Source of the DNA: Candidatus Obscuribacteraceae bacterium
Lineage (GTDB): Bacteria; Cyanobacteriota; Vampirovibrionia; Obscuribacterales; Obscuribacteraceae
Direction of reading: 5' to 3'
Length of the DNA: 64,000 bases
NCBI GenBank assembly: GCA_044226015.1
Contig: JBGAHS010000006.1
Location: 64,001-128,000, forward strand
Below are positions 7,529 through 35,178 of this stretch, one piece after another (the first letter of the stretch is position 1; each line of letters begins with the position of its first letter). Position numbers and translations under genes: made by a program. A model generated the notes under the pieces. That model did not search any database. It had not been told where the DNA came from and saw only the letters and a list, made by a program, of their open reading frames with translations.

Positions 7529-8932
7529 ATGACTGAAAAATCTTATCGCCCCGAAGAGGAGTCGAAGGCAGACTCAGCTTCGACCACTGAATTGCAAAGC
7601 CGTGAGCAGTTGACGAGGGAGGCTTACAGTTCTCCCCCTTCAGTAAGTGAAAGAGACCGCTCGCATGAGAATAGTGCGGAGTTTCTTCCAAACCTGTCTA
7701 TCGATAACTCCGGGTCTGCGCCCGAGACTCTTTCCGACTCTGCCAGTCCTGAAAAAAGAAGAGATTGGCTCCAAAACAGCGCCCATCGACAAGATATCAA
7801 CCTGAAAGAAATCTGGAGCCCAGACTCGAAGGTGCTTGCGATTGGAGATATGCACGAAATGCTGAGCATAAAGAAGTGGACTGCTGATCACTTCAAGGAG
7901 CTGGCCGGAGAAGTTCACAAAGCAACTGCTTTCGCTATGGAGTTTTTGCCGAAAGATTCTCAAAAGATGCTTGATGATTATGCTCAAATTCGTCGCAGCG
8001 GACCTGCAGATCAGATTCCTGCTGCAAGAGAGAAAATTGCAGAGATGATTGCTTCGCATCAGCGTGGGCCAAACGAAAAGACTGACCCTGGAAAAGAGGA
8101 AGCGCTGCAATCTCAAATTAGTATGGTAGATGCTGCAATTGATGCCGGACTAAAGCCACTCGGAATTGAACCAAACGTACCTGGTATGTGGGTTGAAGGA
8201 ACTGGCTTTGATTTGATGAGCTCGGGAATAAGTAAGCTGCCTCAAGATGCACAGGCTTCGTTTGATGGTTTTACTAAACCGGGCAAAACGCAGGGAGAGT
8301 ATGATGAGTCCAGGCAAGTGCTTATGAATGCACTGCAAGGAAGTATGAGCCCTGAGGAATCCTCTCGCTGGATGTCGCTAGTTGAAAGTGCCAGAGATGG
8401 CGGAATGAATTTTGCTGGATTGAAGGTGGGTTCGTCCGACATGGCTAACGAGAACCTAATCGGCGAGCATCAACAAGATTGGCGTAACCGAATCTGGGCT
8501 TCAGCTGTCGCGGAACACCTTGATGGAGGCGGAAGAGTCGTGATGTTTGCTGGAGCCGCGCACTTCAAGCATGGCAAACTTGATACGCCACTGGGAAATC
8601 TTAATTCAGTGAATGAAAACTTTAGCAAACTCGGACATTCAAGCACTGTCGTTCAATTCGCTGGTGGTGATTATGTAAGCTCTGGAAGCCAGGCTAGTGA
8701 CAGAAGAAATCTATATTCTCAATACTGGGAAACTCATAAGCAGTTTGGAGTTAAACAGAGTGAAACTGGTGAATGTCCGGAAATACCAGATAGAGCAAAA
8801 TTCGATTCAATGCGTTGGACAGATGCGGCTAAAAGCGCTGGTATTCAGGGGCGAGACTTTGCTGTAAAGGTTACGCCGAGAGGTGCTCGCCAAACAGACT
8901 GGCTTATTCACTTGAAGCAGGTCTCTCAATGA
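7529..8932 (+). CDS. EreA/ChaN/TIKI-superfamily (RRSP/DUF5-like) protein with polar N-terminal leader; candidate effector
   Basis: The motifs LAIGDMH, AFAMEFL..DSQKMLDDY, AAIDAGLKPLGIE, RNRIWA and VVMFAGAAH occur in the order expected for this fold. I prefer ATG 7529 (purine-rich upstream sequence) over TTG 7424. Confidence 0.7.
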   Translation: MTEKSYRPEEESKADSASTTELQSREQLTREAYSSPPSVSERDRSHENSAEFLPNLSIDNSGSAPETLSDSASPEKRRDWLQNSAHRQDINLKEIWSPDSKVLAIGDMHEMLSIKKWTADHFKELAGEVHKATAFAMEFLPKDSQKMLDDYAQIRRSGPADQIPAAREKIAEMIASHQRGPNEKTDPGKEEALQSQISMVDAAIDAGLKPLGIEPNVPGMWVEGTGFDLMSSGISKLPQDAQASFDGFTKPGKTQGEYDESRQVLMNALQGSMSPEESSRWMSLVESARDGGMNFAGLKVGSSDMANENLIGEHQQDWRNRIWASAVAEHLDGGGRVVMFAGAAHFKHGKLDTPLGNLNSVNENFSKLGHSSTVVQFAGGDYVSSGSQASDRRNLYSQYWETHKQFGVKQSETGECPEIPDRAKFDSMRWTDAAKSAGIQGRDFAVKVTPRGARQTDWLIHLKQVSQ

Positions 8933-9019
8933 GAATGAAAGAAAATGTCATTTCGATAGTAAACATTTTCGATTTGACCTGCTCACGAAATTGTATTTTT
9001 TCTGAATAAAAGAACAAGA

Positions 9020-9050
9020 TAGGGCTGTCAGGATTTTCCTGGCAGCCCTA
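9020..9050 (-). terminator. Intrinsic terminator between convergent genes
   Basis: TAGGGCTGTCAGGA-TTT-TCCTGGCAGCCCTA forms a 14-bp stem with 1 mismatch. The T-rich tail is on the minus strand (TCTTGTTCTTTTATT). Confidence 0.75.
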
Positions 9051-9101
9051 ATTACTCATTTTCAAGCTCAAGGTCGCCACTAAACAGTAAGTTACTGCCT
9101 T

Positions 9102-10073
9102 TTATGTGGCACCATATTGAACGCGATCAACTTGAATTGGTGCATCAAGTAATAACTTTATTGGAGTTCCAGATTGAATCACAACATCATGACCACGACG
9201 CAGTAGCAAGCTATCCGCCAAGCCGACGCCACCGCCTATGGCGGCACCAGACCAAGCTCCTCTTCCTGCACCTCTAGCCGCACCACTTCGGTTGGTGTAG
9301 TAGTTGACTGGCATCAACTGACTTCCCATACCAGGATATCCCATATTTGGATAGCCCATACCCATGCCAGGATATCCCATGCCAGGATATCCCATGTTTG
9401 GATAACCGACAGGAACAATAGCGGTTCGCAACTGAGGTTGAGGATTTCCCTTCCCCGCAATTGCACCGACTGCGGTGCCAAGAGCTGCACCTGCACCAGC
9501 GCCGATGGCGGATCGGACTAAAGCTTGTCCGACTTTAGTTCCAACGGTCTCACCATGCACGGTGCTGCTTCCCTCTGCCAGTTTATACTTGCCGATATTT
9601 CCGCTAATGTGTGCAGCCATTGGCAGTGACATTCCGCCCGGTGTTCTTAGATGATCGAATTTGACAGTCAATTCGCCGGATCGTCCGAGGAAACCTCCGG
9701 ACTTGGCGTTTTCGACATGTCCCTCAAGTACAGTGCCTGCAGGAATCTGACCATTGGCGGTAACTATTGCGTCGCTCAAAGTGGCCTGAACTAGATCACC
9801 GGCTTTGGCAGCCTGCGTGGAAATAGACGTTTGAAGTGAGGCTGATAACATCATGCCGGCTGGCACGTAGCATTGAGTTAATTGCGGAACCGGAGATGGT
9901 GAAGTGTAATTATTGCTTGGCGGGAGATAGGAGCTGCCGCCTGCAGGTGGACTATAAGTAGTGGATGGTGGAATGTAGGAGCTGCCACCGCTATAGGACT
10001 GCGCTAGCGCTGAGGCAGGCATCAATAAGGCTGTTGCAGCCAACAACACAAAAGGAATAGGATTAGAGTTCAT
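9102..10073 (-). CDS. Exported VirB10/TrbI-like beta-barrel domain protein with glycine zipper and GYPxM repeats
   Basis: Signal peptide (..ASALA-Q). VPAGMMLSASLQTSIST..AGDLVQATL..IPAGTVLEGHV..G.LTVKFD and DVVIQSGTPIKLLLDAPI are typical of TrbI/VirB10-like C-terminal domains. Contains GAGAGAALGTAVGAIAG zippers. Confidence 0.7.
   Translation of the reverse strand: MNSNPIPFVLLAATALLMPASALAQSYSGGSSYIPPSTTYSPPAGGSSYLPPSNNYTSPSPVPQLTQCYVPAGMMLSASLQTSISTQAAKAGDLVQATLSDAIVTANGQIPAGTVLEGHVENAKSGGFLGRSGELTVKFDHLRTPGGMSLPMAAHISGNIGKYKLAEGSSTVHGETVGTKVGQALVRSAIGAGAGAALGTAVGAIAGKGNPQPQLRTAIVPVGYPNMGYPGMGYPGMGMGYPNMGYPGMGSQLMPVNYYTNRSGAARGAGRGAWSGAAIGGGVGLADSLLLRRGHDVVIQSGTPIKLLLDAPIQVDRVQYGAT
9324..9407 (-). 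repeat. Coding 15-bp tandem repeat (GYP[N/G]M x5)
   Basis: Near-identical ccaggatatcccat(g/a) units; protein GYPNMGYPGMGYPGMGMGYPNMGYPGMG. Confidence 0.9.
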
Positions 10074-10115
10074 ACGCGCCTCATTCTTGTCTGAGAACTA
10101 ACAACTGTTCTGACT

Positions 10116-10140
10116 GACGAAGAGCAACAAAAAGTGTTTC
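10116..10140 (-). promoter_or_regulatory. Putative ECF-sigma-type promoter GAAAC-N16-CGTC
   Basis: The minus strand reads GAAAC actttttgttgctctt CGTC, 42 bp upstream of the ATG at 10073. It has the same spacing as the site at 38795-38819. Confidence 0.4.
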
Positions 10141-10582
10141 ATCGAAAATGCTTGTTTAACTGCTAGTTAACAAGATTGTTTTCAAGGGAATGTCACTCTC
10201 AAAGATGCTGGGAACATTTTGAGTGATCATGGAAAACAGCCTGTGCTGCTGATTTCGCTGGTAGCATATCTACTAAATTCGCTCTGCGCTTAAAAAGATG
10301 AAGACTATCGTATCTAAAAATGCTCTAGAGTTTGACAGCATAGCTTTGAGAATTTATACGCGAAAAAGTGTATAAGCGCCATTCCTGAAAAATTAGATTT
10401 GGGCTTGGTGCTACTGTCACTATGACCAGTCATAGACGAAACTGTTGGCAGTAAATCGTTTCGAGGAAATTCGAAGTAGTCTGTAAAAGTGCCAGGGTTC
10501 AAAAATACCACAATTGAAAAATATACTTTGATGTATCCGATCGTTGATGAGGCTGGCTCAAACACACGAAAAGGTATAAAAG

Positions 10583-13500
10583 ATGGCAGAAATAGAGAGA
10601 CTAGCAAAGGACGATGAAGAGAAAAAAGCTAACCAAGCCTCTTCTGATCTCAACTCTCAATACGATTTCAGCAGGTTCAGCTCGGAGAATGGCGGCTTAC
10701 CTTTTGGCAGCTCCCGAGTAGACAGAGTAGCTGATTCATTGCCTTCTTTAAATATAGATTCAGCGGCGATAAATAAACAATCGGCAGAGCACTGGAGTTT
10801 CAACAATAGCTCAGAGATGTTAGATCGCATTTTAAGTGGTTCGTCTTTGTTTACTCATGAAAATGGCTCCAAGAAGAGCGCTGAGCGTGTTCCGAGCGAT
10901 AGAACAGGCGCTGTTGAAGACGGTAAAATTCCTAGCAAAGTAATTCTTATAAATACTGATAATCGGTCGAATTCCAAATCAGCGAATGATGCAAAACCAT
11001 CTGAAGCAGGCAAGGATTCAAGCGTCCCTAAGTCAGATGCCGGCGATTCAAAAAATGACAGTGCAGAGAAGAAAGGACCAGTTAAGCTTCCCCAAGAAAA
11101 ATTCGATACCCAAGACATCAAAAAGGCCTTTCAAATAGCCAAAGAAAACAATCTTCCCGTCATAGTATACAAGGGAGCAAATTTCTGCGGAAACTGTCCA
11201 CCAGTCAGTCACGCCATCGACAAACTAGCTGACGACATCAAAAAATCACCAAATACCGAAGCTGTTGTTTTGAAACTTAATTGGGAAAAAGCGCAGGAGA
11301 TTAGCAAGAAGGATCCTGAATTAGGAAAGCTCATTGAAGAGATAATGCCGCTTAGCGGAAGTTCCTTCCCCGATGTGAAAGTGTATAACCCGAATGACAC
11401 CACGAAGCCACTAAAAGATTCCAATCGTTATGGAGGAGACGCTGAATTCCTGAAGAGCCTTATAAAGGTAGGGCAGGATTCGTTTGCTCAAGCTCAAGCT
11501 GAAAAGCCGAAAGAAAAGTCTAATGACTCAAAGCCGGAACCAGGTATCAGAGGCAACTCAGACACTAAAGTTGAACCAAAACCAATCTGGACCAAGCCTT
11601 CAGATAGCAGCACGAATGTTTTTCCTAAGCCGGTCATAGATGGACTCACTGATAGAAGTTCTGTCTCAAGATCCTCCGACACGCAGCACCAGGGACCTTC
11701 AAGTCTTCCCGACCTGTCCTTGAGCACCGTCGACAGCAAAGCTGTAAAACTTGATGATGGAACTTATAAGCGTGACGACCAGGGTCGTGTGACGGAAACG
11801 ATTTCTGCCGATGGTAAAACGAAACGTTCATTTAAATATGAGGATGCTGCTAATCCAAATCGAATTACCTCTGAAACCATAAACGACAAAACCACCTACA
11901 AATTCATTGGAACTTGCAAGGTCAATAATCAGCCTCACAAAATTGATGGAAAAGAAGATAACAGCTACTCCATATATGAAGATGGCAAACTAGTCGGAAA
12001 CTGGTCCGGAGTTCGCGATATCAGTCCAAATGGTGTTTACGCCTTCAAGGACGATAAGATGCAGAACATCGAATATCGCGATGCTTCTGGTCAAAAGTTG
12101 AGTGATGAAGAGCGGCAGCATAGAGATCAGGGAGGAATTTGGCCCAGCGAATTCCAAGTTGCTACCGACAATGGCAGCAAGCTTCACGCTAAGTTGAACG
12201 GAAATCGTTTGGAATCTCTAACTGAGACAAAGAGTGAAAACGGTCAAGAAAAGCAAATTGCATGGAGCCGCAAAGGAGATTTGTGGACTTCCAATGAAAG
12301 TCCAGCTAGAGAGCGTAAGAATCTCACCGTTGATAAGCAAGGTAATATTCGCTACGACTCTGTTGATGGTGCAATTAAGCATGAGCTACTAAGAGACGGA
12401 AATAGAACAGAAACAAATCGGGACGGCATTCGTACTACGTTCAATAAATCTGAGCAGCTCTCTGAAGTTCGTCAGGCGAATGGTGATACTAAAACACTCA
12501 ATTATGACGGAACATCTCTAGTCTCTATCAACGAGAAAATTGCTGGAACTGAGAAGCAGTGGAAGCGAACTGCTGGAACTGATGATTGGTCTGATGGTCA
12601 AAAGACTGAAACAAGGAGAGACATCGAGACCAGACCCGATGGTTCCATCAGATACAAGAATGCTGACGGACAGGCAGTAACTGAGGCAAGTGACCAGGCT
12701 CGTATTACATCAGATGATCAGAACCGCCCCATAAAGGTTGAGTATCCCAGTGGCAGCACAAGAAGCTTCGACTACACAAATGGACAATTGAATTCGTTTA
12801 CAGACAAATTGATTGTCGCTGGTAAGGAGCAAACTAGCACTTGGACCAGAAATGGTGCTACAGGTGAGTTCACCAGTCCTGGTGCCAATGGGACTACGAA
12901 ATCTCGCAGTGACATCAATGTAAGTGCAAATGGTGATTATTCCTATAAGAGCTCTGATGGAAAGGATCACAAAAACCGTGCCTATGATCTGGAACGCCAG
13001 GCTCGTGGCGAAATAATTGTCGGCTCAGAATCTGTTCAAGAAGCAAGGGACAATTTCATCGAACTTGCAAGAGAACGGGGCTTAAAGGCTGAACGATACG
13101 AAAAATACTTGAATCAGCTCGATGCAACATCCAAAAATTATGGAAGCACTCCAGCACAGATCGGCAAAGCATTAGACAGCCTGTCTTCGATTCTCGAAGC
13201 CGACAAAGGTAAGTATCATTCGCGTGCCGAACTAGACAATCTTGTAGAAACTGCTTTGCACAACATCGCTTACCCAGCTGATATTGATCAAGGTTACCAT
13301 CCAACCTGCAATGTAACTACAACTGAAATTTTTGCTGCTGCCAAACATCCAGATAAGTATGCTGAGCTCTTAAAACAAGTTGCGCTGACTGGCGAGTATA
13401 TGACCTCTTTGGGCAAGGCAGTACATCCTCCAGAAAATGCTCTTAAGCCAGGGCGTGACGAGAAGAATTACAATCCAGACGAAACAAACCCTCAAATCAA

Positions 13501-14098
13501 TAAGCGAAATTTTGCCAGCCAGATCTATCAGATGACAACAATCAATGGTGTATACGAGTTGGGAATCCACAGCTCAGAGAAGGACGGCAAAGATAGCGGT
13601 ACCAGATATGTTATGGGCGAAGTGCGTAGCAAAAAGATTCCTAATGGATCTGTTGACCTCGGTGAAGATCTTCTCGTAGATAAGAATGGAAAGATGATGA
13701 CGAGGAAAAATGGAGAGAGCATAGACGGTCCAGAATTCATCCAAGATGACAACGTCACAGCCGCGAAAATGGTGACTGGTGAAACCATGCCTTATCTGGA
13801 AGCACCATATTCTCTGCAAGGTGAAACTAAGAAGCACTACGACTTACCTACATCTGAACGCCTCCAAAAAGCCAAGGCAGAAGGTAAGTTCCCTCTCGGA
13901 GTTTCCACAATGGATGGAAATCACGTACAAACAATTCACGACGTTGTAGTTGACTCCAAAGGTTCAACCTGGGTTCTTCTGGATAATCAACATGGAAAGG
14001 CGAAAGATGGATGGGTTCCTCTTTCTGATCTCCACAAAACTCAGAGTTCTGATCTTGAGTTAGAACCGAAGCGAAGACCATCAGAACGTCCGCAATAG
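10583..14098 (+). CDS. Multidomain toxin-like protein: polar leader, thioredoxin domain (CGNC), YD/RHS-like repeats, C-terminal papain/calpain-like cysteine protease
   Basis: AKENNLPVIVYKGANFCGNC...SFP matches the Trx fold. YKRDDQGRVTETISADG and DDQNRPIKVEYPSGSTRSFDY are YD-like. DIDQGYHPTC (C909), GNHVQTI (H1114) and VLLDNQHG (N1135) form a papain-type Q/C/H/N set. Confidence 0.75.
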   Translation: MAEIERLAKDDEEKKANQASSDLNSQYDFSRFSSENGGLPFGSSRVDRVADSLPSLNIDSAAINKQSAEHWSFNNSSEMLDRILSGSSLFTHENGSKKSAERVPSDRTGAVEDGKIPSKVILINTDNRSNSKSANDAKPSEAGKDSSVPKSDAGDSKNDSAEKKGPVKLPQEKFDTQDIKKAFQIAKENNLPVIVYKGANFCGNCPPVSHAIDKLADDIKKSPNTEAVVLKLNWEKAQEISKKDPELGKLIEEIMPLSGSSFPDVKVYNPNDTTKPLKDSNRYGGDAEFLKSLIKVGQDSFAQAQAEKPKEKSNDSKPEPGIRGNSDTKVEPKPIWTKPSDSSTNVFPKPVIDGLTDRSSVSRSSDTQHQGPSSLPDLSLSTVDSKAVKLDDGTYKRDDQGRVTETISADGKTKRSFKYEDAANPNRITSETINDKTTYKFIGTCKVNNQPHKIDGKEDNSYSIYEDGKLVGNWSGVRDISPNGVYAFKDDKMQNIEYRDASGQKLSDEERQHRDQGGIWPSEFQVATDNGSKLHAKLNGNRLESLTETKSENGQEKQIAWSRKGDLWTSNESPARERKNLTVDKQGNIRYDSVDGAIKHELLRDGNRTETNRDGIRTTFNKSEQLSEVRQANGDTKTLNYDGTSLVSINEKIAGTEKQWKRTAGTDDWSDGQKTETRRDIETRPDGSIRYKNADGQAVTEASDQARITSDDQNRPIKVEYPSGSTRSFDYTNGQLNSFTDKLIVAGKEQTSTWTRNGATGEFTSPGANGTTKSRSDINVSANGDYSYKSSDGKDHKNRAYDLERQARGEIIVGSESVQEARDNFIELARERGLKAERYEKYLNQLDATSKNYGSTPAQIGKALDSLSSILEADKGKYHSRAELDNLVETALHNIAYPADIDQGYHPTCNVTTTEIFAAAKHPDKYAELLKQVALTGEYMTSLGKAVHPPENALKPGRDEKNYNPDETNPQINKRNFASQIYQMTTINGVYELGIHSSEKDGKDSGTRYVMGEVRSKKIPNGSVDLGEDLLVDKNGKMMTRKNGESIDGPEFIQDDNVTAAKMVTGETMPYLEAPYSLQGETKKHYDLPTSERLQKAKAEGKFPLGVSTMDGNHVQTIHDVVVDSKGSTWVLLDNQHGKAKDGWVPLSDLHKTQSSDLELEPKRRPSERPQ

Positions 14099-14217
14099 TT
14101 TCTGTATGCAGAAAACTATTTGATTCTTGGTCTGTCAATTGAAGGCGGCTTCAAACTTAAGTGCTGAGAGGACTGTCCGTGCCTGCGGGTAGGATCGACC
14201 TGCATTTGCGTCCAGTC

Positions 14218-14988
14218 CTAACCGCCATGCGTGAATGGGCACACCCAACTTGAGTGTGAGCCGCCGCATTTTGAACAGTAATGTTCTGTAGCTGGTGTAT
14301 CGTTGTGAGGATACATTCCCGGCGGGGGGATTCCTTTGGGCTGATGGCGATAGAAGTCGGCATTTAGCTGTTTCATTGTGCCATTGCGCTTTTGGATCTC
14401 GTTCAAACAAGACGTCTTGAGCTGATTTGCTGCGGTGTTGTAAGAGCTATTTGCCATGCCGAGTACTCGGTCGCATTCCATAATTGAGTTTTGCAGTGGT
14501 TGAAAATTGAACTGGTTTGGAATGCTACTATTGATGCCCAGTCGGTTTGCTAGAGCAGCCGTCATTCCTGTAGCGGGCAAAGAAGACTCTGTCTTGTACA
14601 AAACTGCAATCTGGTAATGCCATTTTGGATTTTGCGGATCCCAATTGGAGAGTGAGCTCAGCAATCTTTTTTCCGCTTCAATAAGTTTGCTGCAAGATGA
14701 ATAGTCCTTCTTTGCCAACGAAGCTTTGAGCTTTGTGTCTATTAAGTCTGCTTTGCTGCTGGCTATCTGTATGAAGTAGCTTCCAGTCTGCTGCGAAGAA
14801 CGCATAAGCGTGCAAGCTTCAACTATTCTGTTGGCTCCCATCTCATAGTCATTCTGTTGAAAGAAAGTTTCTGCCTCAAGCAATCGGCGTTCTGCCATCG
14901 CATCGGTTCGTGATTGGGCAGAAGCTTCTGCTGAGTTAAGCAGAAGAACAAATAAAGCACACAGAACTCGAAGCAAATTATTCTTCAT
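14218..14988 (-). CDS. Exported helical (TPR-like) protein with C-terminal C-x2-C-x3-H-x4-C zinc-knuckle-like motif
   Basis: Signal peptide MKNNLLRVLCALFVLLLNSAEASA-Q; C-terminus YCSKCGGSHSSWVCP. The ORF track start is TTG 14997. Confidence 0.65.
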   Translation of the reverse strand: MKNNLLRVLCALFVLLLNSAEASAQSRTDAMAERRLLEAETFFQQNDYEMGANRIVEACTLMRSSQQTGSYFIQIASSKADLIDTKLKASLAKKDYSSCSKLIEAEKRLLSSLSNWDPQNPKWHYQIAVLYKTESSLPATGMTAALANRLGINSSIPNQFNFQPLQNSIMECDRVLGMANSSYNTAANQLKTSCLNEIQKRNGTMKQLNADFYRHQPKGIPPPGMYPHNDTPATEHYCSKCGGSHSSWVCPFTHGG

Positions 14989-15030
14989 TTCTTTCAACTT
15001 TAGGAGAGCAAATCTGGTGTGTTCAGCACA

Positions 15031-16191
15031 TCAGTTTGATTTTCTTGTTTTTGGCAATATGAATGAACGTCCGGTATCAGTTGTTACCTGTTCATAATCT
15101 GGATCGACTTCGCTCCATTTTTTCTTGATATCGCCATGAATTTCGGAGACTCTTCCGTTGATGATGAATGTGTTAGTGCTAAGTCTTGGATTCCAGACCT
15201 TGTCTCCGGTCTTTTCATAGAGAGCTTTCGGTACTTCCATTTCAACTCTATGAGATGTCGTCAGATTGGTCAGATGCTTAGTCCAGTCAAAAGTGAAACT
15301 GGAATTGCTTATCTCTACATCAACAAAATATCTGTTCATCGGTTGCCTGGCAACAATCTTCATATCCGAGATTGGCTTTTCAGAGATATATGTGTGAGTT
15401 GAGCCAGCATAAGGCGTATCTAAAAGCGTTCGCCCCTGTCTTTGAAGTTCAGCTTTTAATTCGTTGTACAAAGGCGCAGTAAGATTGTGAGGCTTGTTTT
15501 GTCCATCGACCCAATTGTAATTTTTCTCAATCCGTTTGTCTGATACAGAGACGCTATAGCTGCCGTACTTATCGTTTAGAAGCGCACCCATAACATCGAA
15601 CTTTGTCGATAGCGTTTGACCCTTTTGATATTTATCAAACTGCCTTTCGCCAACCAACGTTGTTCTATACTCGGCTTTAGCTGCGTTTTCAACATGTTCC
15701 CAGAAGTCCAGTGAGTAGCTGGTTTTCTGCATTTTCAAATCAACGAGGTACATGCGTTCTTCGTTGAGTTCTTGGGCATTTTTCACTACGTCTTCATAAT
15801 TCTTACTTGCGAAATCATCATTGACTGATTTAATCATTCTGTCATTCGGTGATGCGCTCGCTTTGGCATTAAAAGCATCCATATCTTTTGAACTGATGCC
15901 TTTGCTGTCCGAGAATACGAGAAAGCCCGATTCATCTCGATTGAGTCGCTGTATCTCTCTAGCGTTTTTGCTTAAGGCGTCTGCTTGTCTGTATTCACGG
16001 CTGATTTGATTGAACTGAGTTCTGAAACTGTCCAGTTCTCTGCCGCTTACAAATCCATTTTTGTCAGTATCGATTTTATCTTTGTTGTTGTCGTAAAAGG
16101 ATTTGAGGCTTTTCGCTGATAGAGCTTCATCTTCCAAATTCAAAATTGGTTTGGAAGGTGAGACAGCGGTTCTGCTAGATAATCCATCCAT
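15031..16191 (-). CDS. EF-hand protein with two copies of an uncharacterised ~75-aa domain
   Basis: Canonical EF loop DTDKNGFVSGRE (aa 41-52). Internal repeat YLVDLKMQKTSYSLDFWEHVEN (aa 148-) / YFVDVEISNSSFTFDWTKHLTN (aa 288-). Confidence 0.7.
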   Translation of the reverse strand: MDGLSSRTAVSPSKPILNLEDEALSAKSLKSFYDNNKDKIDTDKNGFVSGRELDSFRTQFNQISREYRQADALSKNAREIQRLNRDESGFLVFSDSKGISSKDMDAFNAKASASPNDRMIKSVNDDFASKNYEDVVKNAQELNEERMYLVDLKMQKTSYSLDFWEHVENAAKAEYRTTLVGERQFDKYQKGQTLSTKFDVMGALLNDKYGSYSVSVSDKRIEKNYNWVDGQNKPHNLTAPLYNELKAELQRQGRTLLDTPYAGSTHTYISEKPISDMKIVARQPMNRYFVDVEISNSSFTFDWTKHLTNLTTSHRVEMEVPKALYEKTGDKVWNPRLSTNTFIINGRVSEIHGDIKKKWSEVDPDYEQVTTDTGRSFILPKTRKSN

Positions 16192-16879: not shown

Positions 16880-16903
16880 GTTCCCTCTTGCTAGAAGTTA
16901 GGC

Positions 16904-25129: not shown

Positions 25130-25135
25130 GGGCGA

Positions 25136-27919: not shown

Positions 27920-29013
27920 TCGGTACCCAGTTACTCGACCGCTATATTGCAAACGAATTCTGGCAGCCATTGCTGTTCGGTATCGGTATCGTAACCGGCG
28001 TATGGTTCGGTGCTGATCAATTGAAGACTATCTTCAATTTGATCATGAAGTCAGGTGTGCCACTGCATCTCGCGTTTGAGATCATCGGCTTGCACTTGCC
28101 TGAAATTATCGTATTAACCATTCCTATCGGTGTATTGCTCGGTACATTGCTTGTGTTCAATCGATTGTCTGGTGACTCAGAAATCATCGCTTTGCGTACA
28201 AGCGGCATCAGCTTCTATCGCATCATGGTGGCACCATTGATGTTTGGATTGCTGACCAGTATTGCTAGCTTCGGCATCAACGAATATGTTGTGCCGGTTG
28301 CAAACCGCACATCCAAAAAGCTTGAATTCGTTGCTTTGTACAAACAAAATCTGCCTGAAGGAACCGCAAACTTCACCTATATGGAGCGCGGAAAAGACCT
28401 TTCATTGAGCCGTGTGTATTACATTGGCTTGGCTGACAAAACTCAGATCAACAACGTTATCATTCTGGACTTCACCCGAGACAAGCTCGTTCAGATCATC
28501 AGCGCAGCACATGGTCTCTGGAACCACGGCGAGTGGATTCTACAAAAAGGGCGAACCTATGTTCTTGCTGGCGACAGTGACATCACAAGAATCATGAAGT
28601 TTGAATCGCTGGTCATTCCAGGCGTGCGAAATGCTGCTGAAGCATTGAAGTTAAACAAAGTGGCAGTCAAAGATATGAATATTGGAGAATTGTCTGCCTA
28701 CATTGATAACATGAAGAAAACTGGAGTAGTACCTCGTGACCTGATGGTTCGCTTCCACCAGAAGTTTTCGCAGCCACTGGCATGTTTGATCGTAGCATTG
28801 GCAGGTGCACCTCTGGGTCTGCTTGCACGCCGTTCACGAAGCAACCTTGGTCTTGTTTATTCAGCAGCAATCGTATTTTTGTATTACGTATTGCAATCAA
28901 GTTCTGGCGCGTTGGGTGATTCCGGTAGGCTCGATCCGATAGTAGCTGCATGGCTGCCGAACGCGGTCATCGGAACACTTGGTACCGTTATCCTCTATTT
29001 CAAAGCTCGATAA
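27916..29013 (+). CDS. lptG: LptF/LptG-family LPS export permease
   Basis: LLDRYIANE, RLSGDSEIIALRTSGIS, AAWLPN. F versus G cannot be resolved by eye. Confidence 0.9.
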   Translation: MIGTQLLDRYIANEFWQPLLFGIGIVTGVWFGADQLKTIFNLIMKSGVPLHLAFEIIGLHLPEIIVLTIPIGVLLGTLLVFNRLSGDSEIIALRTSGISFYRIMVAPLMFGLLTSIASFGINEYVVPVANRTSKKLEFVALYKQNLPEGTANFTYMERGKDLSLSRVYYIGLADKTQINNVIILDFTRDKLVQIISAAHGLWNHGEWILQKGRTYVLAGDSDITRIMKFESLVIPGVRNAAEALKLNKVAVKDMNIGELSAYIDNMKKTGVVPRDLMVRFHQKFSQPLACLIVALAGAPLGLLARRSRSNLGLVYSAAIVFLYYVLQSSSGALGDSGRLDPIVAAWLPNAVIGTLGTVILYFKAR

Positions 29014-29036
29014 GGTATAGCTCGTTATGATTATTT

Positions 29037-29066
29037 GGGAGACGGTTATCCGTCTCCCTTTTGTTT
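29037..29066 (+). terminator. Rho-independent terminator of the lpt operon
   Basis: GGGAGACGG-TTAT-CCGTCTCCC followed by TTTTGTTT. Confidence 0.85.
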
Positions 29067-29242
29067 GCGGATGCTCCTGCAGCTTTGATAGAGTTTAGAG
29101 CGGAATTGTTCGATGAAGAGATGCTCGCAATGTAGTGCTTACTATCTCATCTGCTACACTGAACTGAGTCAATCGCAGACTTACAGATGACAACGTGGTG
29201 TTGTTCTTGATACCACTGCTGAAAAATACGAGGCAAAAAAGA

Positions 29243-29761
29243 ATGAGTTTTCTTGTTATTAGTTCCAGTTTGAATTCTCAGAGCAAGAGTGCCATTCTTG
29301 CAAGCGAAGCAATGAAGCACCTAAAGGCCGCTGGAAAGACTGTTGAGTGGGTTGACTTAAGAGAAGTTGAACTTCCATTATGTGATGGCGAAAGGGCTTA
29401 TGGTCATCCGAATGTCGCGAAAATGGCCGCTAAGATCAAAGATGCCTCGTGCATACTAATCGGCGTGCCGATTTACAATTATGATTGTGGTGCCGCCGTA
29501 AAAAATCTACTTGAACTCACCGGTAAAGCATGGACGGAAAAGACTGTTGGCTTTCTCTGTGCTGCAGGTGGAAAGTCAAGCTACATGTCCATTATGGGAT
29601 TTGCAAATAGTCTAATGCTCGATTTTCGTTGTTTGATAATTCCTCGATTCGTTTACACTGATGGCTCTGCATTCAAAGAAAGCCAGATCATCGATAAGGA
29701 AATTAGCGAGCGCATTGAACAGCTTGTTCAAGCTGCCATCAAATACGATACCGCAGGCTAA
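29243..29761 (+). CDS. NADPH-dependent FMN reductase (flavodoxin-like)
   Basis: LVISSSLNSQSKS, GVPIYNY...AVKNLLE, K.VGF. ATG 29243 preferred. Confidence 0.9.
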   Translation: MSFLVISSSLNSQSKSAILASEAMKHLKAAGKTVEWVDLREVELPLCDGERAYGHPNVAKMAAKIKDASCILIGVPIYNYDCGAAVKNLLELTGKAWTEKTVGFLCAAGGKSSYMSIMGFANSLMLDFRCLIIPRFVYTDGSAFKESQIIDKEISERIEQLVQAAIKYDTAG

Positions 29762-29885
29762 TTGCGTGTAAGTCTGCAATTCTTGGAATTTGTCCAAGAA
29801 TTGCCTTACTTTCGTTCACGGGTATCAAGAAATTACGTTGTCTCAACTGGAAGAGTAGCTCGCAATTGCGCTGCTCTTCTTTGTT

Positions 29886-30290
29886 TTAGAAACCCCTATA
29901 ACCCAAGACCACAAGCAGGCAAGGTCCACCATAAATAACGTTGAGTCCAGCCTTCTCAGCTTTCTCAATTGCAGCCGTACTTTCTGCTCCGGGTTGTATC
30001 CAGATATTTTTGACACCACTAGCAATGGCATCGTCTATTATGCGATCTGTAACATGAGGCTGCGTAATGACAGAAATTGATTCGACTTTTTCTGGCAGCG
30101 ATGCGATGTCTTTGAATACAGGATTTCCTAGAATTTCCTTGCTGTTCGGGTTTATGGGGTAAGCCTTGCGACCTTTGTCCAGATAGCATTTGTAGCATCG
30201 ATAACCGTATTTGTAGGTGTCTTCACTTGCACCGGCAACTCCAAACACCGGAGCTGCAAGAAATGCCTCAATTTTTTCGTCGATAGTCAT
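29886..30290 (-). CDS. CoA-binding domain protein (YccU-like)
   Basis: VAGASEDTYKYG, YPINP, IWIQPGAES, CLLV. Confidence 0.9.
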   Translation of the reverse strand: MTIDEKIEAFLAAPVFGVAGASEDTYKYGYRCYKCYLDKGRKAYPINPNSKEILGNPVFKDIASLPEKVESISVITQPHVTDRIIDDAIASGVKNIWIQPGAESTAAIEKAEKAGLNVIYGGPCLLVVLGYRGF

Positions 30291-30452
30291 GATATTACCT
30301 GAGATGAAATGATGCTAAGAAATCAGCCTTGAAATCCGTCTGATAGCGGATTAGCGGACTGGGAGAATACGTATTGACTCAGAGCCCTATTCAAATTAAT
30401 GTTCTATATATCTTAAAGCTATTCACGACGACTTCACGCTTCTTGTTGCAAG

Positions 30453-31799
30453 ATGACTAATTCTTCCAATGTCATGAGAAACCGACGGGCTGCTCCGCCT
30501 AAAGCTCTATTCGCTATAGGGGCGTTGCTTATTGTCGCGGTTACTGTTCCAATCGCAGCTCAGCATATGGGTGCGGTTCAATTTCCAGACCTCAGCAAAT
30601 TGGTTCCGACAAAGAATGTCGATACTCAAAAAGATGCTTCAGCTGAAAAGGTCAAAACTTCCTTTGCCGTGGCGAGTAACGGTACTGCAACTTACGTGCA
30701 AGCGCTCGATCATGCTGCAGCTCAGTTGTCTTCTGAAATTCAACATCGACCGTCCGATCCTTCGCTGCAGAATCGACTCGGGCTCATTTATCTCACTCTG
30801 GGTGATTCCAAAGCGGCAGAGCAGTGCTTTCAGAATGCTGTTACTCTGAGCAGGGGCGCGATTTCGGCTTACGCAACAAATGTCGAAAAATTCAAAGGAC
30901 AGGGCAAAATGTCCGATGCTTCCAAGCAGGTCTTGGAGGCGTCTCAAGCCTCTATCGAACTGGCAGCGGCCCATTCCAACCTCGCGAGAGTGTACGACCA
31001 GAGAGGTGACCGAAAGGCTGTCATCGCTGAACTTGACCAGATTAACAAAGACGGAGCGCTCTTTAGCTCTGGCTTTGGAACAGGCACTAACAACGGTAAA
31101 TTGAGTTCTAATGACGGCAATTTGAGTGCAAGAGATACTCAGATGCTTGCTCAAGCAGAGTCAATGTTTAAGGCCAATCAGCTAGGACCCGCGTTGGAAA
31201 CATACCGCAGGCTTGCTGAAGCGAACCCCAGATTGGCTTTTGTTCAAGACCGAATCGGCTTGATTTCAGTAATGACTGGTGATGTGAATTCCGGTATAGA
31301 AGCCTGGGAAAAGGCTGCTAAGCTTAACCCTGGCTCTGCGACGATACAAGGCAATCTGGGACTTGCATATCATCAACTCGGCATGGACAAAGAGTCGGAG
31401 TCTTCTTTCCGTAAGGCACTTGTACTCAACCCCTCTTTGGAAGAAGCCGCTCTAAATCTTGGCGAATTGCTTTCTGCAAAAGGTGACTTTAAGGGCGCTG
31501 TTGCAGTCATGAGCGATGCAACCAAGCACTGTCCAAACTCAGCAAGAGCCGCAAACAATTTGGGCACCATGCTTTCTATGTCTGGAAATTACAGTGACGC
31601 AATTTCTTCGTTCCACAGAGCAATTCGGCTTGACCCTGGAATGTCGTCAGCTCATTATGGAATGGGAATGGCGCTGATGAAGATGCATAAATATGCAGCT
31701 GCTATACCTGAATTGAAAATTGCATTAGCGCTCAATGGCAAGCTGATTGACGCACAGAATAAGATTGAGGAAGCTCAGAAGGCTTTGTCGAGACACTAA
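30453..31799 (+). CDS. Membrane-anchored/exported TPR protein
   Basis: N-terminal hydrophobic helix and multiple 34-aa TPRs (NLGLAYHQLG, NNLGTMLSMSG). Confidence 0.85.
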   Translation: MTNSSNVMRNRRAAPPKALFAIGALLIVAVTVPIAAQHMGAVQFPDLSKLVPTKNVDTQKDASAEKVKTSFAVASNGTATYVQALDHAAAQLSSEIQHRPSDPSLQNRLGLIYLTLGDSKAAEQCFQNAVTLSRGAISAYATNVEKFKGQGKMSDASKQVLEASQASIELAAAHSNLARVYDQRGDRKAVIAELDQINKDGALFSSGFGTGTNNGKLSSNDGNLSARDTQMLAQAESMFKANQLGPALETYRRLAEANPRLAFVQDRIGLISVMTGDVNSGIEAWEKAAKLNPGSATIQGNLGLAYHQLGMDKESESSFRKALVLNPSLEEAALNLGELLSAKGDFKGAVAVMSDATKHCPNSARAANNLGTMLSMSGNYSDAISSFHRAIRLDPGMSSAHYGMGMALMKMHKYAAAIPELKIALALNGKLIDAQNKIEEAQKALSRH

Positions 31800-31805
31800 A
31801 CTGAA

Positions 31806-32552
31806 ATGGAAAAATCAGTTGTCGCTTTGCTAGGTCCCTCCGGAAGCGGAAAATCCAGCATAGGTCAATGTATAGCCAGAAAACTTGATTGGGATTTTCT
31901 CGACTCAGACCGCGAAATAGAAGTTCTGACTGGACTTAGCATCGCTGAGATCTTCCGAAAAAACGGCGAAGCAGCGTTCAGGAACCTGGAGAAACTGTTT
32001 CTTGAGAATCTAGTTTTCTCCCTTGGTTCAGGACTTTCGAATCTTGGTAAAGGTATTCGAAGCCAGTTGGAAGCCGGTGCTCCCAGCTGTGAAGCGGTTT
32101 CTTCTACTGCAGAAGCGGTTTCTTTCGTTGGGCAAGCGAGTTCTTCCACAGGTGAACCCAAACTGGAAGTGGCTTCTTACAGAGCTGGCGGATGTGTTCT
32201 TTCGACTGGAGGAGGAATGCCAATATTTAATGACAACATTGCACTTCTTCAATCGTTCGCTACCCTTGTATACCTGACAGCGCCGCTTGAAGTTCTTGTT
32301 ACACGAATAAAAACGAGCGAAAATCGTCCTTTGCTTTCCGGCTCTGAGACTAAAAGGCACGAGGTGACAGATAATGAGTTAATTTTGCGACTTGGCAAGC
32401 TAATTGCTGAAAGAGAGAGCATTTACAACCTTGCCCGGTATAGAATTGACACGTCATCGTCCAGTCCAGAACAGCTAGCTGATGACATCATCGAAATGGC
32501 GGGTCTCGTTTCGCAGCCCGCTGCTCAGGGTAGGATCATTCACGAGACGTGA
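31806..32552 (+). CDS. aroK: Shikimate kinase with an internal low-complexity insertion
   Basis: GPSGSGKSSIG, FLDSDREIE, GEAAFRNLE, VLSTGGG, RPLL, ER..IY. Confidence 0.9.
   Translation: MEKSVVALLGPSGSGKSSIGQCIARKLDWDFLDSDREIEVLTGLSIAEIFRKNGEAAFRNLEKLFLENLVFSLGSGLSNLGKGIRSQLEAGAPSCEAVSSTAEAVSFVGQASSSTGEPKLEVASYRAGGCVLSTGGGMPIFNDNIALLQSFATLVYLTAPLEVLVTRIKTSENRPLLSGSETKRHEVTDNELILRLGKLIAERESIYNLARYRIDTSSSSPEQLADDIIEMAGLVSQPAAQGRIIHET
32070..32153 (+). repeat. Four degenerate 21-bp tandem repeats inside aroK
   Basis: gaagccggtgctcccagctgt / gaagcggtttcttctactgca / gaagcggtttctttcgttggg / caagcgagttcttccacaggt (EAGAPSC EAVSSTA EAVSFVG QASSSTG). Confidence 0.7.
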
Positions 32553-32569
32553 GCACGGAGGGTTAAGGC

Positions 32570-33178
32570 TTGACGGTCACCCAGGAAGAATTGATGTTTT
32601 TGCAGTCCCAGCTGGAAGGGTTAGAATCCATCTTCCTGGAACTTATTCCATTTGGTGTTGAGCTCAAAAGACAGCACGTTCAAGATTACTACGAAAAACG
32701 TTTTGATCAGGCTACACGACCAACTGCTAACGTGGCTGAAAATGAGCTGAAGCGTCAGTTCAACACGAAAGCTAACAACGTGAGAAATCTTGTGGATGCC
32801 GCTGAGTCATTGGGCGACGCAGGCAACAAGTTGAACCTGATTCGTGCTGCGGCAACATTACCAGATGAGCGCACCAAACCTTTGAAAGGCAACATGGCTG
32901 CAGTTTGCCAGAAATTGCTCTATGAAAATTCTCTTGACCAACAGTCTCTTGCCCAGGCGATGGCTAGTGGCGATCTCGCACATGTCGAAGCTCGTGTCTT
33001 GCTTGGTTCACTAATGTTTTTGATAGTTGATCAGTTGGAATGCAACGGGCAGCAAGTCTCGGTGCAAGAACTGCTCGGTAAAATAATTCAGTTCGTCAGT
33101 CAGCGAGGCATACTCGCTCGCAACGATCCATTTCTGATAGAAGCGCAATGTGCGCTTGAAGCAATGTCAGACGAATAG
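32570..33178 (+). CDS. Hypothetical helical protein
   Basis: Strong RBS GGAGG upstream of TTG; 202 aa; lies between aroK and aroQ. Confidence 0.75.
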   Translation: MTVTQEELMFLQSQLEGLESIFLELIPFGVELKRQHVQDYYEKRFDQATRPTANVAENELKRQFNTKANNVRNLVDAAESLGDAGNKLNLIRAAATLPDERTKPLKGNMAAVCQKLLYENSLDQQSLAQAMASGDLAHVEARVLLGSLMFLIVDQLECNGQQVSVQELLGKIIQFVSQRGILARNDPFLIEAQCALEAMSDE

Positions 33179-33208
33179 CATTTCGCCTAGATTGGAATTC
33201 CGGCTGCG

Positions 33209-33667
33209 ATGAGCACCAACCTGCCCTTAAAAATTCAAGTAATCAATGGACCGAATCTCAACTTGCTTGGGAAGAGGGAACCAGATCTCTATGGAGCCGT
33301 TACCCTGGATGACATCAGTCGTGGTCTGGCTGACTGTGCGCGAGAGCTGAATATAGAAATTCAGTTTTACCAGTCGAATATCGAAGGTGAACTCGTCACA
33401 ATGGTTCAGAAAGCACGCGAAAGAGGCATTGATGGCATCCTCATAAACCCGGGTGCTTATACGCACACATCCATTGCCATTCGCGATGCACTACTGGCGG
33501 TGAACATTCCTTTTGTCGAGGTGCATGTCACCAATACTTTTTCCCGCGAGTCGTTCAGGCAGCAGAGCTACTTGTCAGACGTCGCGGCGGGCGTAGTTGT
33601 TGGCTTCGGACCTCAGGGCTATGAACTAGCTCTGCTTGGACTTGTAGGGCGTCTCAAGTCGCGCTGA
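33209..33667 (+). CDS. aroQ: Type II 3-dehydroquinate dehydratase
   Basis: INGPNLNLLGKREPDLYG, QSNIEGELV, INPGAYTHTSIAIRDAL, VEVHVTN. Confidence 0.97.
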   Translation: MSTNLPLKIQVINGPNLNLLGKREPDLYGAVTLDDISRGLADCARELNIEIQFYQSNIEGELVTMVQKARERGIDGILINPGAYTHTSIAIRDALLAVNIPFVEVHVTNTFSRESFRQQSYLSDVAAGVVVGFGPQGYELALLGLVGRLKSR

Positions 33668-33795
33668 TTCTAAATTTTAAAAGAATAAGCCGGAGGGTAC
33701 TGCAATCCAGAACAGCTCCCTACGGCTCATTCGCATTTGTTTCATCGCATGAGAACAGTCTAGGCTGCGCAGGTAAAGAAGTTGTGGAAGGAGAA

Positions 33796-35178
33796 TCAAG
33801 CGCTTCTTAAATTTGCTTCTTCCGAACTACTGAATTTTCGCTGGAGGGCAACAAAGCGTGAGTGTCCTGATTGGCGATGTGAAGCTTGCGACAACTGCTT
33901 ACAAGCAAGCTGTTCGTTAGAGATATCCTTGCCGGACCTCAGTCCAGCTCGGCGAAGCGCTGAGCGTGCGCCACCCGTACCGGTCTGATTTACAAGATCG
34001 CAAACAAGAGCTATGCCGAGTTCACTCTTAAAGCCAAATTCTTGAGCAAGCTTGATAGATGATTTGACGAATTGCCTGGCAAGTTCAACCTGGGTGGCTT
34101 GCATTGCTTTATTGTGCAGAGCTTTGTCCATGCGCGTCATCAGATCTGGATCTGCCGACATGTTGTAGTTCCTTACCCAGGACTCCGAGCAGAGTTTGTC
34201 GCTATATTTCTCGCCGAATATCTCATTGAATTCACGGGGATTCTTTGATTGCCATGCCTTCAGAAGTGTTGGCAGTTCGCCCACTTTCTGGTTCCATTGT
34301 CTGATGCCAATTGAAATGCCATAACCGCAATCGTTTCGATTTAGGGAGACAAAATTGCCTTCATTGCCACTGACTGCGTGAACTACCTGGTCAATGAACT
34401 GTTTCTGATTCAGATGATCGCTGAGCTTCGAATTTGCAGATCCCTTGCTCTGTAATTCCTTTCTGTATCTTGCGAAGATTGAACTGCGTTCGCCACCGGC
34501 TCCCGAAAATCCTGACCCATCTGACGAACGAAGCCCAACGTGATCAGAATATCTTGAACTTGGAATTTGCAAAGAGTCAGTGCTCAATATCATTGGCGGT
34601 GGCATTTCGCTATTGAAAATACTCTGCCAGTTTTGGGTATAGCTTGCATCAGGGTTGTGCATGTGAAGATAAGAAATCACATCTCGCAATGCTGCTTTTT
34701 GTTCAGGACTGAGAGTATTGCTGTCTTTATCGTATTCAAATGAAATTAGCACTCTAGGATTTATGGTCCCTTCGAGCTGGGCAGTACGTAAAGGATTAAG
34801 CTCAATGCTGCCATCTCTGCGTATAATCAAATCTGAATTTTTGTCTCTGCTTGATTCTTCAAGATCTTCAGCATTTTCCAGAAGTGTCTGAACCTTCTCA
34901 ACTTGCTGCTTTTGCAAGGCGAGGTCAAGAATCTCAAAGCGCTCAGCCGAGGAACTTGCACTCTTTATTGTGAATCTGTTCTCTGGTACTGCCTGCGGTG
35001 CCAGAAATGTTAATTCCGGCAAGGCATTTCTAGCCGAATCATTAGATTCGGAATGAGTCTCATGACTGAAAGCTTGTTTTAGTCCAAGCAAACCAACTGC
35101 GGTTTGCTCCAATGAGTTGAGAATATGTTGAAACGAGGAATCACGATGTTTTTCCGAACCAAAAATATCTGCAGCCAA
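33796..35178 (-). CDS. Putative peptidoglycan hydrolase: polar leader, degenerate amidase_2-like segment, C-terminal lysozyme-like domain
   Basis: VSGNEGNFVSLNRND.GYGISIGIRQWN..GELPTLL...Q..Q...GFKSELGIALVCDLVNQTGTGG resembles lysozyme-superfamily muramidases (candidate catalytic E273). TTG start with GCAGG upstream. Confidence 0.65.
   Translation of the reverse strand: MAADIFGSEKHRDSSFQHILNSLEQTAVGLLGLKQAFSHETHSESNDSARNALPELTFLAPQAVPENRFTIKSASSSAERFEILDLALQKQQVEKVQTLLENAEDLEESSRDKNSDLIIRRDGSIELNPLRTAQLEGTINPRVLISFEYDKDSNTLSPEQKAALRDVISYLHMHNPDASYTQNWQSIFNSEMPPPMILSTDSLQIPSSRYSDHVGLRSSDGSGFSGAGGERSSIFARYRKELQSKGSANSKLSDHLNQKQFIDQVVHAVSGNEGNFVSLNRNDCGYGISIGIRQWNQKVGELPTLLKAWQSKNPREFNEIFGEKYSDKLCSESWVRNYNMSADPDLMTRMDKALHNKAMQATQVELARQFVKSSIKLAQEFGFKSELGIALVCDLVNQTGTGGARSALRRAGLRSGKDISNEQLACKQLSQASHRQSGHSRFVALQRKFSSSEEANLRSA

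Follow-up and report, generated by a model that had tools for sequence, protein, structure and literature searches.

The window analysed here, a stretch of 64,000 nucleotides from an Obscuribacterales genome (G000), raises the question why three unrelated proteins, A, B and C (Table 1), carry a similar short motif at the same distance from their start codons, and whether this motif could be an address for export. The sequence-only reading had proposed a lineage-specific leader, fixed at residue 53, that routes effectors to an export apparatus. The motifs LPNLSI, LPSLNI and LPELTF do start at residue 53 in all three, counted from ATG 7529, ATG 10583 and TTG 35178, and a gene caller that is blind to the motif (dicodon model plus RBS score) picked identical starts. 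The TTG start of protein C is further supported by its orthologue in genome G002, in which LPNLSF lies near residue 51 when counted from an ATG start. Scored with the leader model described below, A, B and C reach 32, 19 and 5.8 (all three being training members) versus 0.9 for the protein at 15031..16191; the membership of the latter, which had been counted as a loose relative, is thus unsupported, and the EF-hand ascribed to it was not found by Pfam.

The assignment of protein A to an RRSP/TIKI fold holds weakly, as a Tiki/ChaN-like match, while its paralogues match that family at 1e-12 to 1e-13. Both database homologues of A, P0002 and P0003, retain a leader-like N-terminus as judged by eye; a search for related loci gave 0 relatives among 63 candidates. 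Protein B consists of the leader, a thioredoxin-like CxxC domain, RHS/YD repeats and a C-terminal papain-like domain. The YD repeats are matched weakly (E 5.5e-5), and the papain-like assignment draws on the conservation of Q903 and C909 in 12 of 13 in-genome homologues together with Atlas leads below 0.9; Q903, C909, H1114 and N1135 are the putative catalytic residues. Protein C has a leader with a weak helix element, a middle domain and a C-terminal GH46/lysozyme-fold domain. Its lysozyme-like character was borne out by the AF2 model (pLDDT 90), which resembles GH46 chitosanases and, more weakly, the T6SS effector-immunity structures 4nso/4noo; Glu273 and Asp283 of the domain are invariant in 16/16 aligned homologues, and a PDB sequence search with the whole protein gave 0 matches. 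The protein encoded between A and B is one of five weak TrbI-like matches in G000 and only putatively belongs to the secretion system discussed below.

Table 1. Features of the window, with positions counted from its first nucleotide.
Feature	Position	Strand	Support
Leader protein A, 467 aa: leader and Tiki/ChaN-like domain	7529..8932	+	Pfam Cofac_haem_bdg, E 1.6e-5
Helix element of leader A, LTREAY, residues 28-33	7610..7627	+	18.9 bits, training member
LPNLSID strand of leader A, residues 53-59	7685..7705	+	
TrbI/VirB10-like protein, hydrophobic N-terminus, between A and B	9102..10073	-	PF03743 E 1e-7, below cut-off; NF038091 E 8e-4
Leader protein B, 1171 aa, ending PKRRPSERPQ	10583..14098	+	
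LPSLNID strand of leader B, residues 53-59	10739..10759	+	
Second, internal motif copy in B, LPDLSL, residue 375, polar linker	11705..11722	+	
Protein named earlier as loose member, rejected	15031..16191	-	Leader score 0.9; no Pfam family
Leader protein C, 460 aa, TTG start	33796..35178	-	
Lysozyme-superfamily (chitosanase-like) domain of C	33799..34431	-	Foldseek E 1.4e-4, GH46 chitosanase
LPELTF strand of leader C, residues 53-58	35005..35022	-	

In the whole of G000, about 110-230 of the 6111 called proteins begin with such an acidic, polar leader, and the curated set of 125 proteins comprises 98 unrelated cargo clusters. The first leader element, a short helix [LF]xx[ED]A[WYFL], is found in 105 of the 125 at a median residue of 26 and is the more general of the two. 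The second element, LPxLx[ILF], is often present. In total, 62 such motifs lie within residues 45-77 (median 55) and 6 of them start at exactly residue 53, hence the position is a band, and the fixed residue of the window does not extend to the class. Extra copies in internal linkers and C-termini number 21 in 59,439 residues, a rate of 3.5 versus 1.9 per 10,000. Leader genes do not differ from others in GC content (0.474 versus 0.473) and are not clustered in G000, where 18/125 have another leader gene no more than two genes away; 32/125 of them are closely followed by a gene on the same strand, versus 2741/5986 other genes.

With the three window proteins excluded, LP.L.[ILF] in a polar context is seen 22 times between residues 41 and 80 versus 3.8 expected from positions >110 of the proteins (p=1.3e-10). 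The excess is smaller for the narrower LP.L.[IF] (9 versus 2.7, p=0.002) and without the polar filter (19 versus 12.0, p=0.038), under the same exclusion. The helix element is found in 38 non-seed proteins versus 11.2 expected in a seed-excluded, composition-matched test (p=3e-10). A joint model of both elements, built as two weight matrices, gives a score of at least 6.5 to 120 real N-termini versus 9.8 per 6111 shuffled ones, and of at least 9 to 95 versus 0 per 6111 composition-keeping shuffles. Seeds and curated proteins alike were selected by eye, so the model counts are partly circular. A full-length profile HMM of 59 leaders was overfitted (one non-training match of at least 10 bits) and the matrices were used instead. 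That this HMM gained almost nothing past its training set, and that the seeds were picked by eye, would suit an explanation in which the leaders are merely disordered polar N-termini or the remnants of one ancestral family, an account that the seed-excluded tests and the shuffles speak against.

The distribution among genomes bears on the same point. A position-blind HMM search detected the leader in 15/24 genomes of the family and in 0/13 genomes of other orders. Some matches in relatives are orthologues of training proteins, as shared ancestry would have it, but 19 of 27 inspected position-blind matches have LP at residue 49-65, also in other genera. In genome G016, 0/423 sampled genes score at least 6.5, though both of its type IV secretion system (T4SS) loci are present, and family f2 has the T4SS with leader matches in 0/3. 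Random DNA yielded 0/85 matches for G012, 1/76 for G023, 1/72 for G019 and 1/82 for G017, of which only that of G023 looks real by eye.

What the leaders are attached to is an independent feature. Among the Pfam-annotated leader proteins, 32/44 are proteases, peptidoglycan hydrolases, nucleases/nucleotidases or esterases, compared to 3/56 soluble controls, or 8/56 if NUDIX and small-molecule phosphatases are taken in. Of the 109 leader proteins scanned, 65 lack a Pfam match, and the cargo of relatives adds SLT, Tlde1 and RHS-LysM. Members of one M4 protease family either bear the leader, lack it or start with a hydrophobic stretch. The other end of the proteins, whose charge played no part in their selection, is also distinctive. 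The last residue is K, R or H in 58/125 leader proteins versus 549/2100 (p=2.5e-6), and the net charge of the last five residues is +1.11 versus +0.40 in signal-peptide-like proteins (p=7e-9) and +0.29 in other proteins with a polar N-terminus; against signal-peptide-like proteins the last-residue bias alone is not significant (p=0.063). This basic tail is an enrichment of the set and not universal, as proteins A and C of the window are without a basic end. No C-terminal domain is common to the 98 clusters. The artefact or ancestry explanation, already largely refuted by the seed-excluded tests, the shuffles and the placement of matches in other genera, is further opposed by cargo and tail as independent features, and we regard it as very improbable. 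The earlier proposal is thereby sustained in its core: a lineage-specific N-terminal leader on unrelated proteins without a hydrophobic N-terminus, enriched in lytic or effector-like domains.

Such a leader might also act inside the cell, as a chaperone-binding, inhibitory or turnover element that quiets the enzymes until lysis and has no role in transport. The extra motif copies in linkers and C-termini and the presence of leaderless M4 protealysin-like proteases in the same genomes are compatible with this, as is the lack of immunity genes: small signal-peptide-like neighbours, looked for as adjacent immunity-like genes, were found downstream of 3/32 and upstream of 5/28, which is no enrichment. 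It is difficult to see, however, how one inhibitor could block 98 unrelated folds or why cell-wall hydrolases, which have no cytoplasmic substrate, should need it, and transport better accounts for the basic tail and for the narrow range of distances to the start codon. We consider quieting improbable, and the leader probably an export or targeting signal, as judged from the pattern of sequences.

For a machine that could read it, the best candidate is a T4SS of the order Obscuribacterales. A VirB4-like gene is present in 28/28 genomes of the order, a VirD4-like gene in 25/28 (72-94% identity) and a DUF2225 gene in 27/28, and the locus is syntenic in G016 and G025. The NCBIfam scores of the VirB4-like and VirD4-like proteins are all below the equivalog cut-offs; PF03135 missed the VirB4-like genes, which PF19044 detected, and the ATPases best fit Gram-positive/ICE-type models. 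The VirD4 of the order was sought in 13 genomes of other orders with no match, and its identity to plasmid proteins is only 23-25%. G000 has two VirB4 paralogues, one copy with two in-frame stops. The names VirB2, VirB3, VirB6 and VirB8 rest on position and topology (VirB2 also on an Atlas lead), whereas VirB9, VirB7 and a convincing VirB10 gave no match, weak TrbI/VirB10 matches being scattered; for a complete channel, with its VirB7/9/10 outer-membrane core and VirB11, the candidates are likewise positional and topological. VirB6-like multi-membrane matches number 7-12 in five large genomes of the leader-rich genus versus 2 in G016 and G011, a copy number confounded with genome size. Genome G010 has 11 VirB6-like matches and zero leader matches. 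The DUF2225 gene (Zn-ribbon/TPR) lies directly upstream of VirB3-like genes. Foldseek of its product gave weak TPR matches at most (best E 0.028).

Other known routes were sought along with the T4SS. A T3SS is unsupported: the FHIPEP gate (FlhA/SctV) was found in 0/28 genomes of the order and in 13/13 sampled genomes of other orders, controls having matched. For a T6SS or eCIS, the contractile sheath (TssC/VipB, Phage_sheath_1) gave 0 matches in G000 (92% complete), the one genome covered, and the controls again matched. The tube protein Phage_T4_gp19 was found in 0/41 genomes and a CesT-family class I chaperone in none, with controls likewise without a match in both cases. As for a T7SS, the EccC/EssC FtsK ATPase search in G000 returned just the VirB4-like gene and one weak P-loop match.

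Pilus loci are the basis of another explanation, in which the leader directs export through a pilus machine (Tad or type IVa), loading into vesicles or passage through some exporter not yet recognised, and the T4SS is for conjugation or attachment. G000 has a PilB/PilT locus, several more PilT-like ATPases and two Tad loci, with TadE-like genes inside its T4SS locus B (absent there in G016), and Tad-like killing systems exist in predatory bacteria. The T4SS is also wider than the leader, being kept in some relatives with almost no leaders, and a relaxase-like Replic_Relax gene adjoins VirD4 in 32/80 loci, so that the machine may move DNA. The basic tail, on the other hand, suits recognition by a coupling protein, pilus systems are not known to move folded cytoplasmic enzymes without Sec, and VirB6-like genes are multiplied in the leader-richest genus, with the confounding and the exception of G010 already given. 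Export by such a route is in our view unlikely, and it is reasonably probable that the exporting machine is the core chromosomal T4SS of the order.

Several described systems resemble parts of this picture. The dispersed peptidoglycan hydrolases, lytic transglycosylases, peptidases and lipases that are effectors (X-Tfes) of the bacteria-killing X-T4SS of Xanthomonadales share one signal and have VirD4 as receptor (PMC6536674). That signal is a C-terminal XVIPCD of about 120 residues and immunity genes lie upstream, unlike the short N-terminal leader with a basic tail and the lack of enriched immunity genes beside leader genes in Obscuribacteraceae; no XVIPCD Pfam match was found in 112 scanned proteins, and the Obscuribacterales ATPases differ in best matching Gram-positive/ICE-type models. 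Type IVA effectors, including those of Bartonella with BID and basic tail, have a positively charged C-terminus as their usual signal, sometimes with a second element (PMC12981334), and some T4SS effectors are guided by signals at the N-terminus (PMC8047123). The available parts of these sources describe no conserved, position-banded N-terminal motif on >100 substrates. The class II anchor of T3SS translocators likewise follows a polar N-terminus, as a short hydrophobic stretch at about residues 49-70 bound by a TPR chaperone (IpaB 65-PELKAP-70, YopD 58-63, PopD 49-54; PMC3443056), and LPELxL of the leader is similar in place and letters. The leader is nevertheless not such a P/VxLxxP anchor, since its consensus LPxLx[ILF]xD has no closing proline; moreover, its cargo consists of enzymes and not translocators, and the gate was not found in the 28 genomes of the order. 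The core T4SS of Patescibacteria, tied to life on host bacteria, is also vertically inherited, with Gram-positive-type VirB3/4/6/8/D4 and VirB2-like pilins (PMC12857230), a likeness in described parts. The owner here, G000, is instead a large-genome bacterium that has LPS transport genes, two paralogues of VirB4 and many marked enzymes. Vampirovibrio chlorellavorus, of the same class, is proposed to pass hydrolases into its prey through a T4SS (PMC4451040); that system is T-type and partly plasmid-borne, unlike the chromosomal one here, and the available text proposes no substrate signal. No earlier description of a leader of this kind was found in the literature searched.

What has been observed is thus the motif pattern with its positional band and its spread, the kinds of cargo, and the basic tail. 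The reading that joins them best, a modular export leader on lytic enzymes that are delivered by the T4SS, has in our estimate a probability of about 0.5. The leader would open with an acidic/polar stretch and a short amphipathic helix near residue 26, followed by a polar spacer and, in part of the proteins, by an LPxLx[ILF]D strand near residue 55; it would take the place of a Sec signal peptide on 110-230 stand-alone lytic or unfamiliar proteins. A cytoplasmic chaperone or adaptor, possibly the Zn-ribbon/TPR DUF2225 protein, may bind it and hold the enzyme unfolded or inactive, the VirD4-like coupling protein may read the basic tail, and the T4SS would take the enzymes through both membranes to the inside or surface of a contacted cell, which is probably a bacterial prey. 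A two-ended T4SS signal is the favoured reading, and the basic tail matches the usual type IVA signal. More tentative is the fullest version, in which an order without flagella or T3SS has a highly diverged, vertically inherited T4SS whose substrates are marked by a basic tail and by a T3SS-like leader that a TPR adaptor reads, and large-genome members would send 100-200 hydrolases through it into prey.

Taken together, the leader on >100 unrelated enzymes and unknown proteins suggests an export signal that has not been described before and is most likely read by the T4SS. T4SS signals described so far are mostly C-terminal, and the finding suggests that such systems can also rely on a conserved leader at the N-terminus. 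If the fullest version is true, the leader would form a new class of secretion signal, from which a whole effector repertoire could be predicted. Being present on 2-4% of the proteome, it directly lists the putative secreted arsenal of an uncultured lineage, of which 65/109 scanned members belong to no known family. The reciprocal split within the class, with the gate in 13/13 genomes of other orders and the T4SS in the order without it, makes the evolution of host/prey interaction in non-photosynthetic cyanobacteria testable. Obscuribacterales is an uncultured order, and the findings point to a predatory or cell-attacking lifestyle; its large-genome members would then be unrecognised contact-dependent predators.

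The 8.19-Mb source genome (92% complete) carries a real N-terminal leader on a large set of lytic proteins: an acidic, polar tag with a short helix and often an LPxLx[ILF] strand, found where a Sec signal peptide would sit. Most likely it is an export signal. The sequence-only reading had placed the motif at residue 53 in three window proteins (A, from ATG 7529; B, from ATG 10583; C, from TTG 35178 on the minus strand), and the count holds from these starts, which were also chosen by a gene caller blind to the motif. Leaving these three proteins out, we counted 22 copies of LP.L.[ILF] at residues 41-80 that follow a 30-residue stretch of at least 75% polarity, where 3.8 were expected (p=1.3e-10), and 41 copies against 22.4 with the polar filter off (p=2.6e-4); the enrichment is weaker for the narrower [IF] form. 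The proposed fixed position gives way to a band at residues 45-77 (median 55, n=62 members), with only 6 of the 62 strands at residue 53.

Counts for the source genome refer to 6111 genes from our own dicodon-plus-RBS caller, among which some wrong starts are expected. Seeds were 46 proteins picked by eye among 468 loose matches, and the training set, after five seeds had been dropped and ten proteins supplied by eye, numbered 59. Training revealed a second element, the short helix [LF]xx[ED][AV][WYFLM], some 25-35 residues upstream of the LP strand; residues 14-40 of non-seed proteins contain 38 copies of it, where 11.2 were expected (p=3e-10), and its median position in 105 members is residue 26 (10-90%: 22-32). 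Five-fold cross-validation, which is partly circular because the seeds had been chosen for the motif, recovered 46/59 held-out seeds at ≥10 bits versus 21/6111 internal decoys. At joint-model scores of 2, 4, 6.5, and 9, there were 300, 185, 120, and 95 N-termini, compared with 66, 32, 10, and 0 per 6111 shuffles, and we therefore estimate 110-230 members in this genome. The curated set of 125 (nine high scorers removed by eye) still forms 98 clusters after trimming of the first 65 residues. Its members are acidic over the first 20 residues (mean charge -1.8 vs. +0.2), and 10% have a predicted membrane segment, compared to 40% of other proteins. They also tend to end in a basic tail: the last residue is basic in 58/125 versus 549/2100 other soluble proteins (p=2.5e-6), and the last five residues together carry a net charge of +1.11, compared with +0.40 in signal-peptide-like proteins (p=7e-9) and +0.29 in other polar-start proteins. 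Last-residue identity alone does not separate leader from signal-peptide-like proteins significantly (p=0.063).

The suspicion that the cargo consists of enzymes acting outside the cytoplasm or on other cells is supported by a Pfam scan of 109 of the 125 proteins (giants by their last 1500 residues) plus the three of the window, at E≤0.001, with some matches below the curated cut-off. Matches were obtained for 44/109, and 32 of these are lytic, compared with only 3 of the 56 matched among 70 soluble non-leader controls. The 32 comprise 20 peptidases or peptidase-like proteins (five M4, three trypsin, two C11, two C2, two Tiki, M28, S53 pro-domain, S51, DJ-1, and two transglutaminase-like), five peptidoglycan hydrolases, five nucleases or nucleotidases, and two alpha/beta hydrolases; the others include LysM, FHA, HEAT, thioredoxin-like and similar domains and one weak response-regulator match. 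SLT, Tlde1, amidase, and lysozyme domains in the cargo suggest that the targets are bacterial. The domain of protein C, with an invariant Glu and Asp, has a predicted fold (pLDDT 90) matching GH46 chitosanases, and its substrate may therefore be peptidoglycan or chitosan. The leader is modular, since some M4 proteases carry it, others lack it, and others again have a hydrophobic N-terminus; paralogues of some leader proteins have signal-peptide-like starts.

By eye, protein C homologues retain the leader in three relatives (G002, G017, G023) and a looser version of it in others; in another family of the order, their N-terminus is different. A position-blind six-frame search with an HMM of 31 leaders (E≤1) matched 15/24 genomes of the source family, 0/3 of the sister family, and 0/13 of other orders. 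Of 27 matches inspected outside the source genome, 19 have LP at residues 49-65 (seven from other genera; several of the 19 are orthologues of training proteins), three at 78-106 in longer leaders, one is C-terminal, and four are noise. By contrast, random DNA from outside the source genus yielded few leaders: 0/423 genes in the relative G016, 0/175 and 0/167 in two other orders, and 0/85, 1/76, 1/72, and 1/82 in four other genera. The lytic arsenal is expanded in large-genome members of the source genus, six of which carry 4-13 M4 peptidase copies, versus 0-2 elsewhere.

As for the exporter, the T3SS/flagellar gate FlhA/SctV is absent from all 28 Obscuribacterales genomes and present in 13/13 sampled genomes of other orders, where several have two full-length copies, which suggests a non-flagellar T3SS in those Melainabacteria. 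The source genome encodes a type IVa pilus along with two Tad loci; TssC, a contractile sheath, and EccC were not found in it. Two chromosomal T4SS-like loci occur order-wide. Between them they contain a single VirD4-like gene and two paralogous VirB4-like genes, and their multi-membrane VirB6-like genes are multiplied; their synteny is conserved in the relatives G016 and G025. VirB4-like matches are found in 28/28 genomes of the order and 3/13 outside (one weak), VirD4-like in 25/28 and 0/13, and the neighboring DUF2225 gene, a candidate adaptor with a predicted zinc-ribbon-like part and TPR-like helices, in 27/28 and 0/13. The ATPases are only remotely related to any curated family or to plasmid proteins; a relaxase-like gene adjoins VirD4 in 32/80 loci.

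Further features noted (C, contig of the source genome G000; L, locus handle)
Location	Strand	Feature	Observation
C10:63035-90085 (L039, L040)		T4SS-like locus	VirB4-like paralogue
C1:182285-205260 (L036, L037)		T4SS-like locus	VirB4-like paralogue
L036:3274-5976		C1 VirB4-like gene	Two in-frame TAA stops, no frameshift; 79% identity to intact G016 copy; either decay or assembly error
L039:14036-17176		VirD4-like protein	Conserved 35-residue N-terminal module, long low-complexity linker, single membrane helix; C-terminal CxxC..CxxC zinc ribbon
C10:78943-81324		793-aa DUF2225 fusion	Beside normal DUF2225 gene, in leader-richest genus
C1:952017-954968		983-aa protein	End domain 55% identical to VirB2-like protein; adjoins 1952-aa leader protein
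Window 9102-10073	-	TrbI/VirB10-like protein	Glycine zipper; five weak matches in genome, one adjoining T4SS locus B here and in G016
Window 16-7392	+	3' part of 5098-aa Gly-rich protein	Signal-peptide-like start; tandem with 5065-aa paralogue upstream of window
Window 15031-16191	-	Protein with EF-hand-like loop	Loop seen by eye (DTDKNGFVSGRE), no Pfam match; C-terminal end is a basic tail
Window 58838-60148	-	M4 peptidase	Hydrophobic N-terminus; family has 13 copies in source genome, at least 5 with leader
L298:1501-2064; L070:17923-18609		Small polar proteins	LPxLxL at extreme C-terminus

Within the openly available full-text literature searched, no description of these two loci was found and the leader is previously unrecorded; neither a secretion leader nor a T4SS of Obscuribacterales was found there, although an earlier mention of the T4SS genes elsewhere is possible. 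The consulted portion of PMC12857230 mentions neither Obscuribacter nor Melainabacteria.

The core T4SS is the leading but unproven candidate for the export apparatus. Since it is retained where leaders are scarce, it may have a second job, or the model trained on the source genome may miss a diverged leader. Beyond the directly observed pattern, position, spread, cargo, tail, T4SS-like core, and missing T3SS gate, a chaperone would bind the leader, the coupling protein would recognize the basic tail, and the enzymes would be delivered in one step and used for predation. Unlike in the X-T4SS, where immunity genes are found, no enrichment of immunity-like genes is seen beside the leader genes, which is easier to reconcile with attack in one direction, on prey, than with mutual killing.
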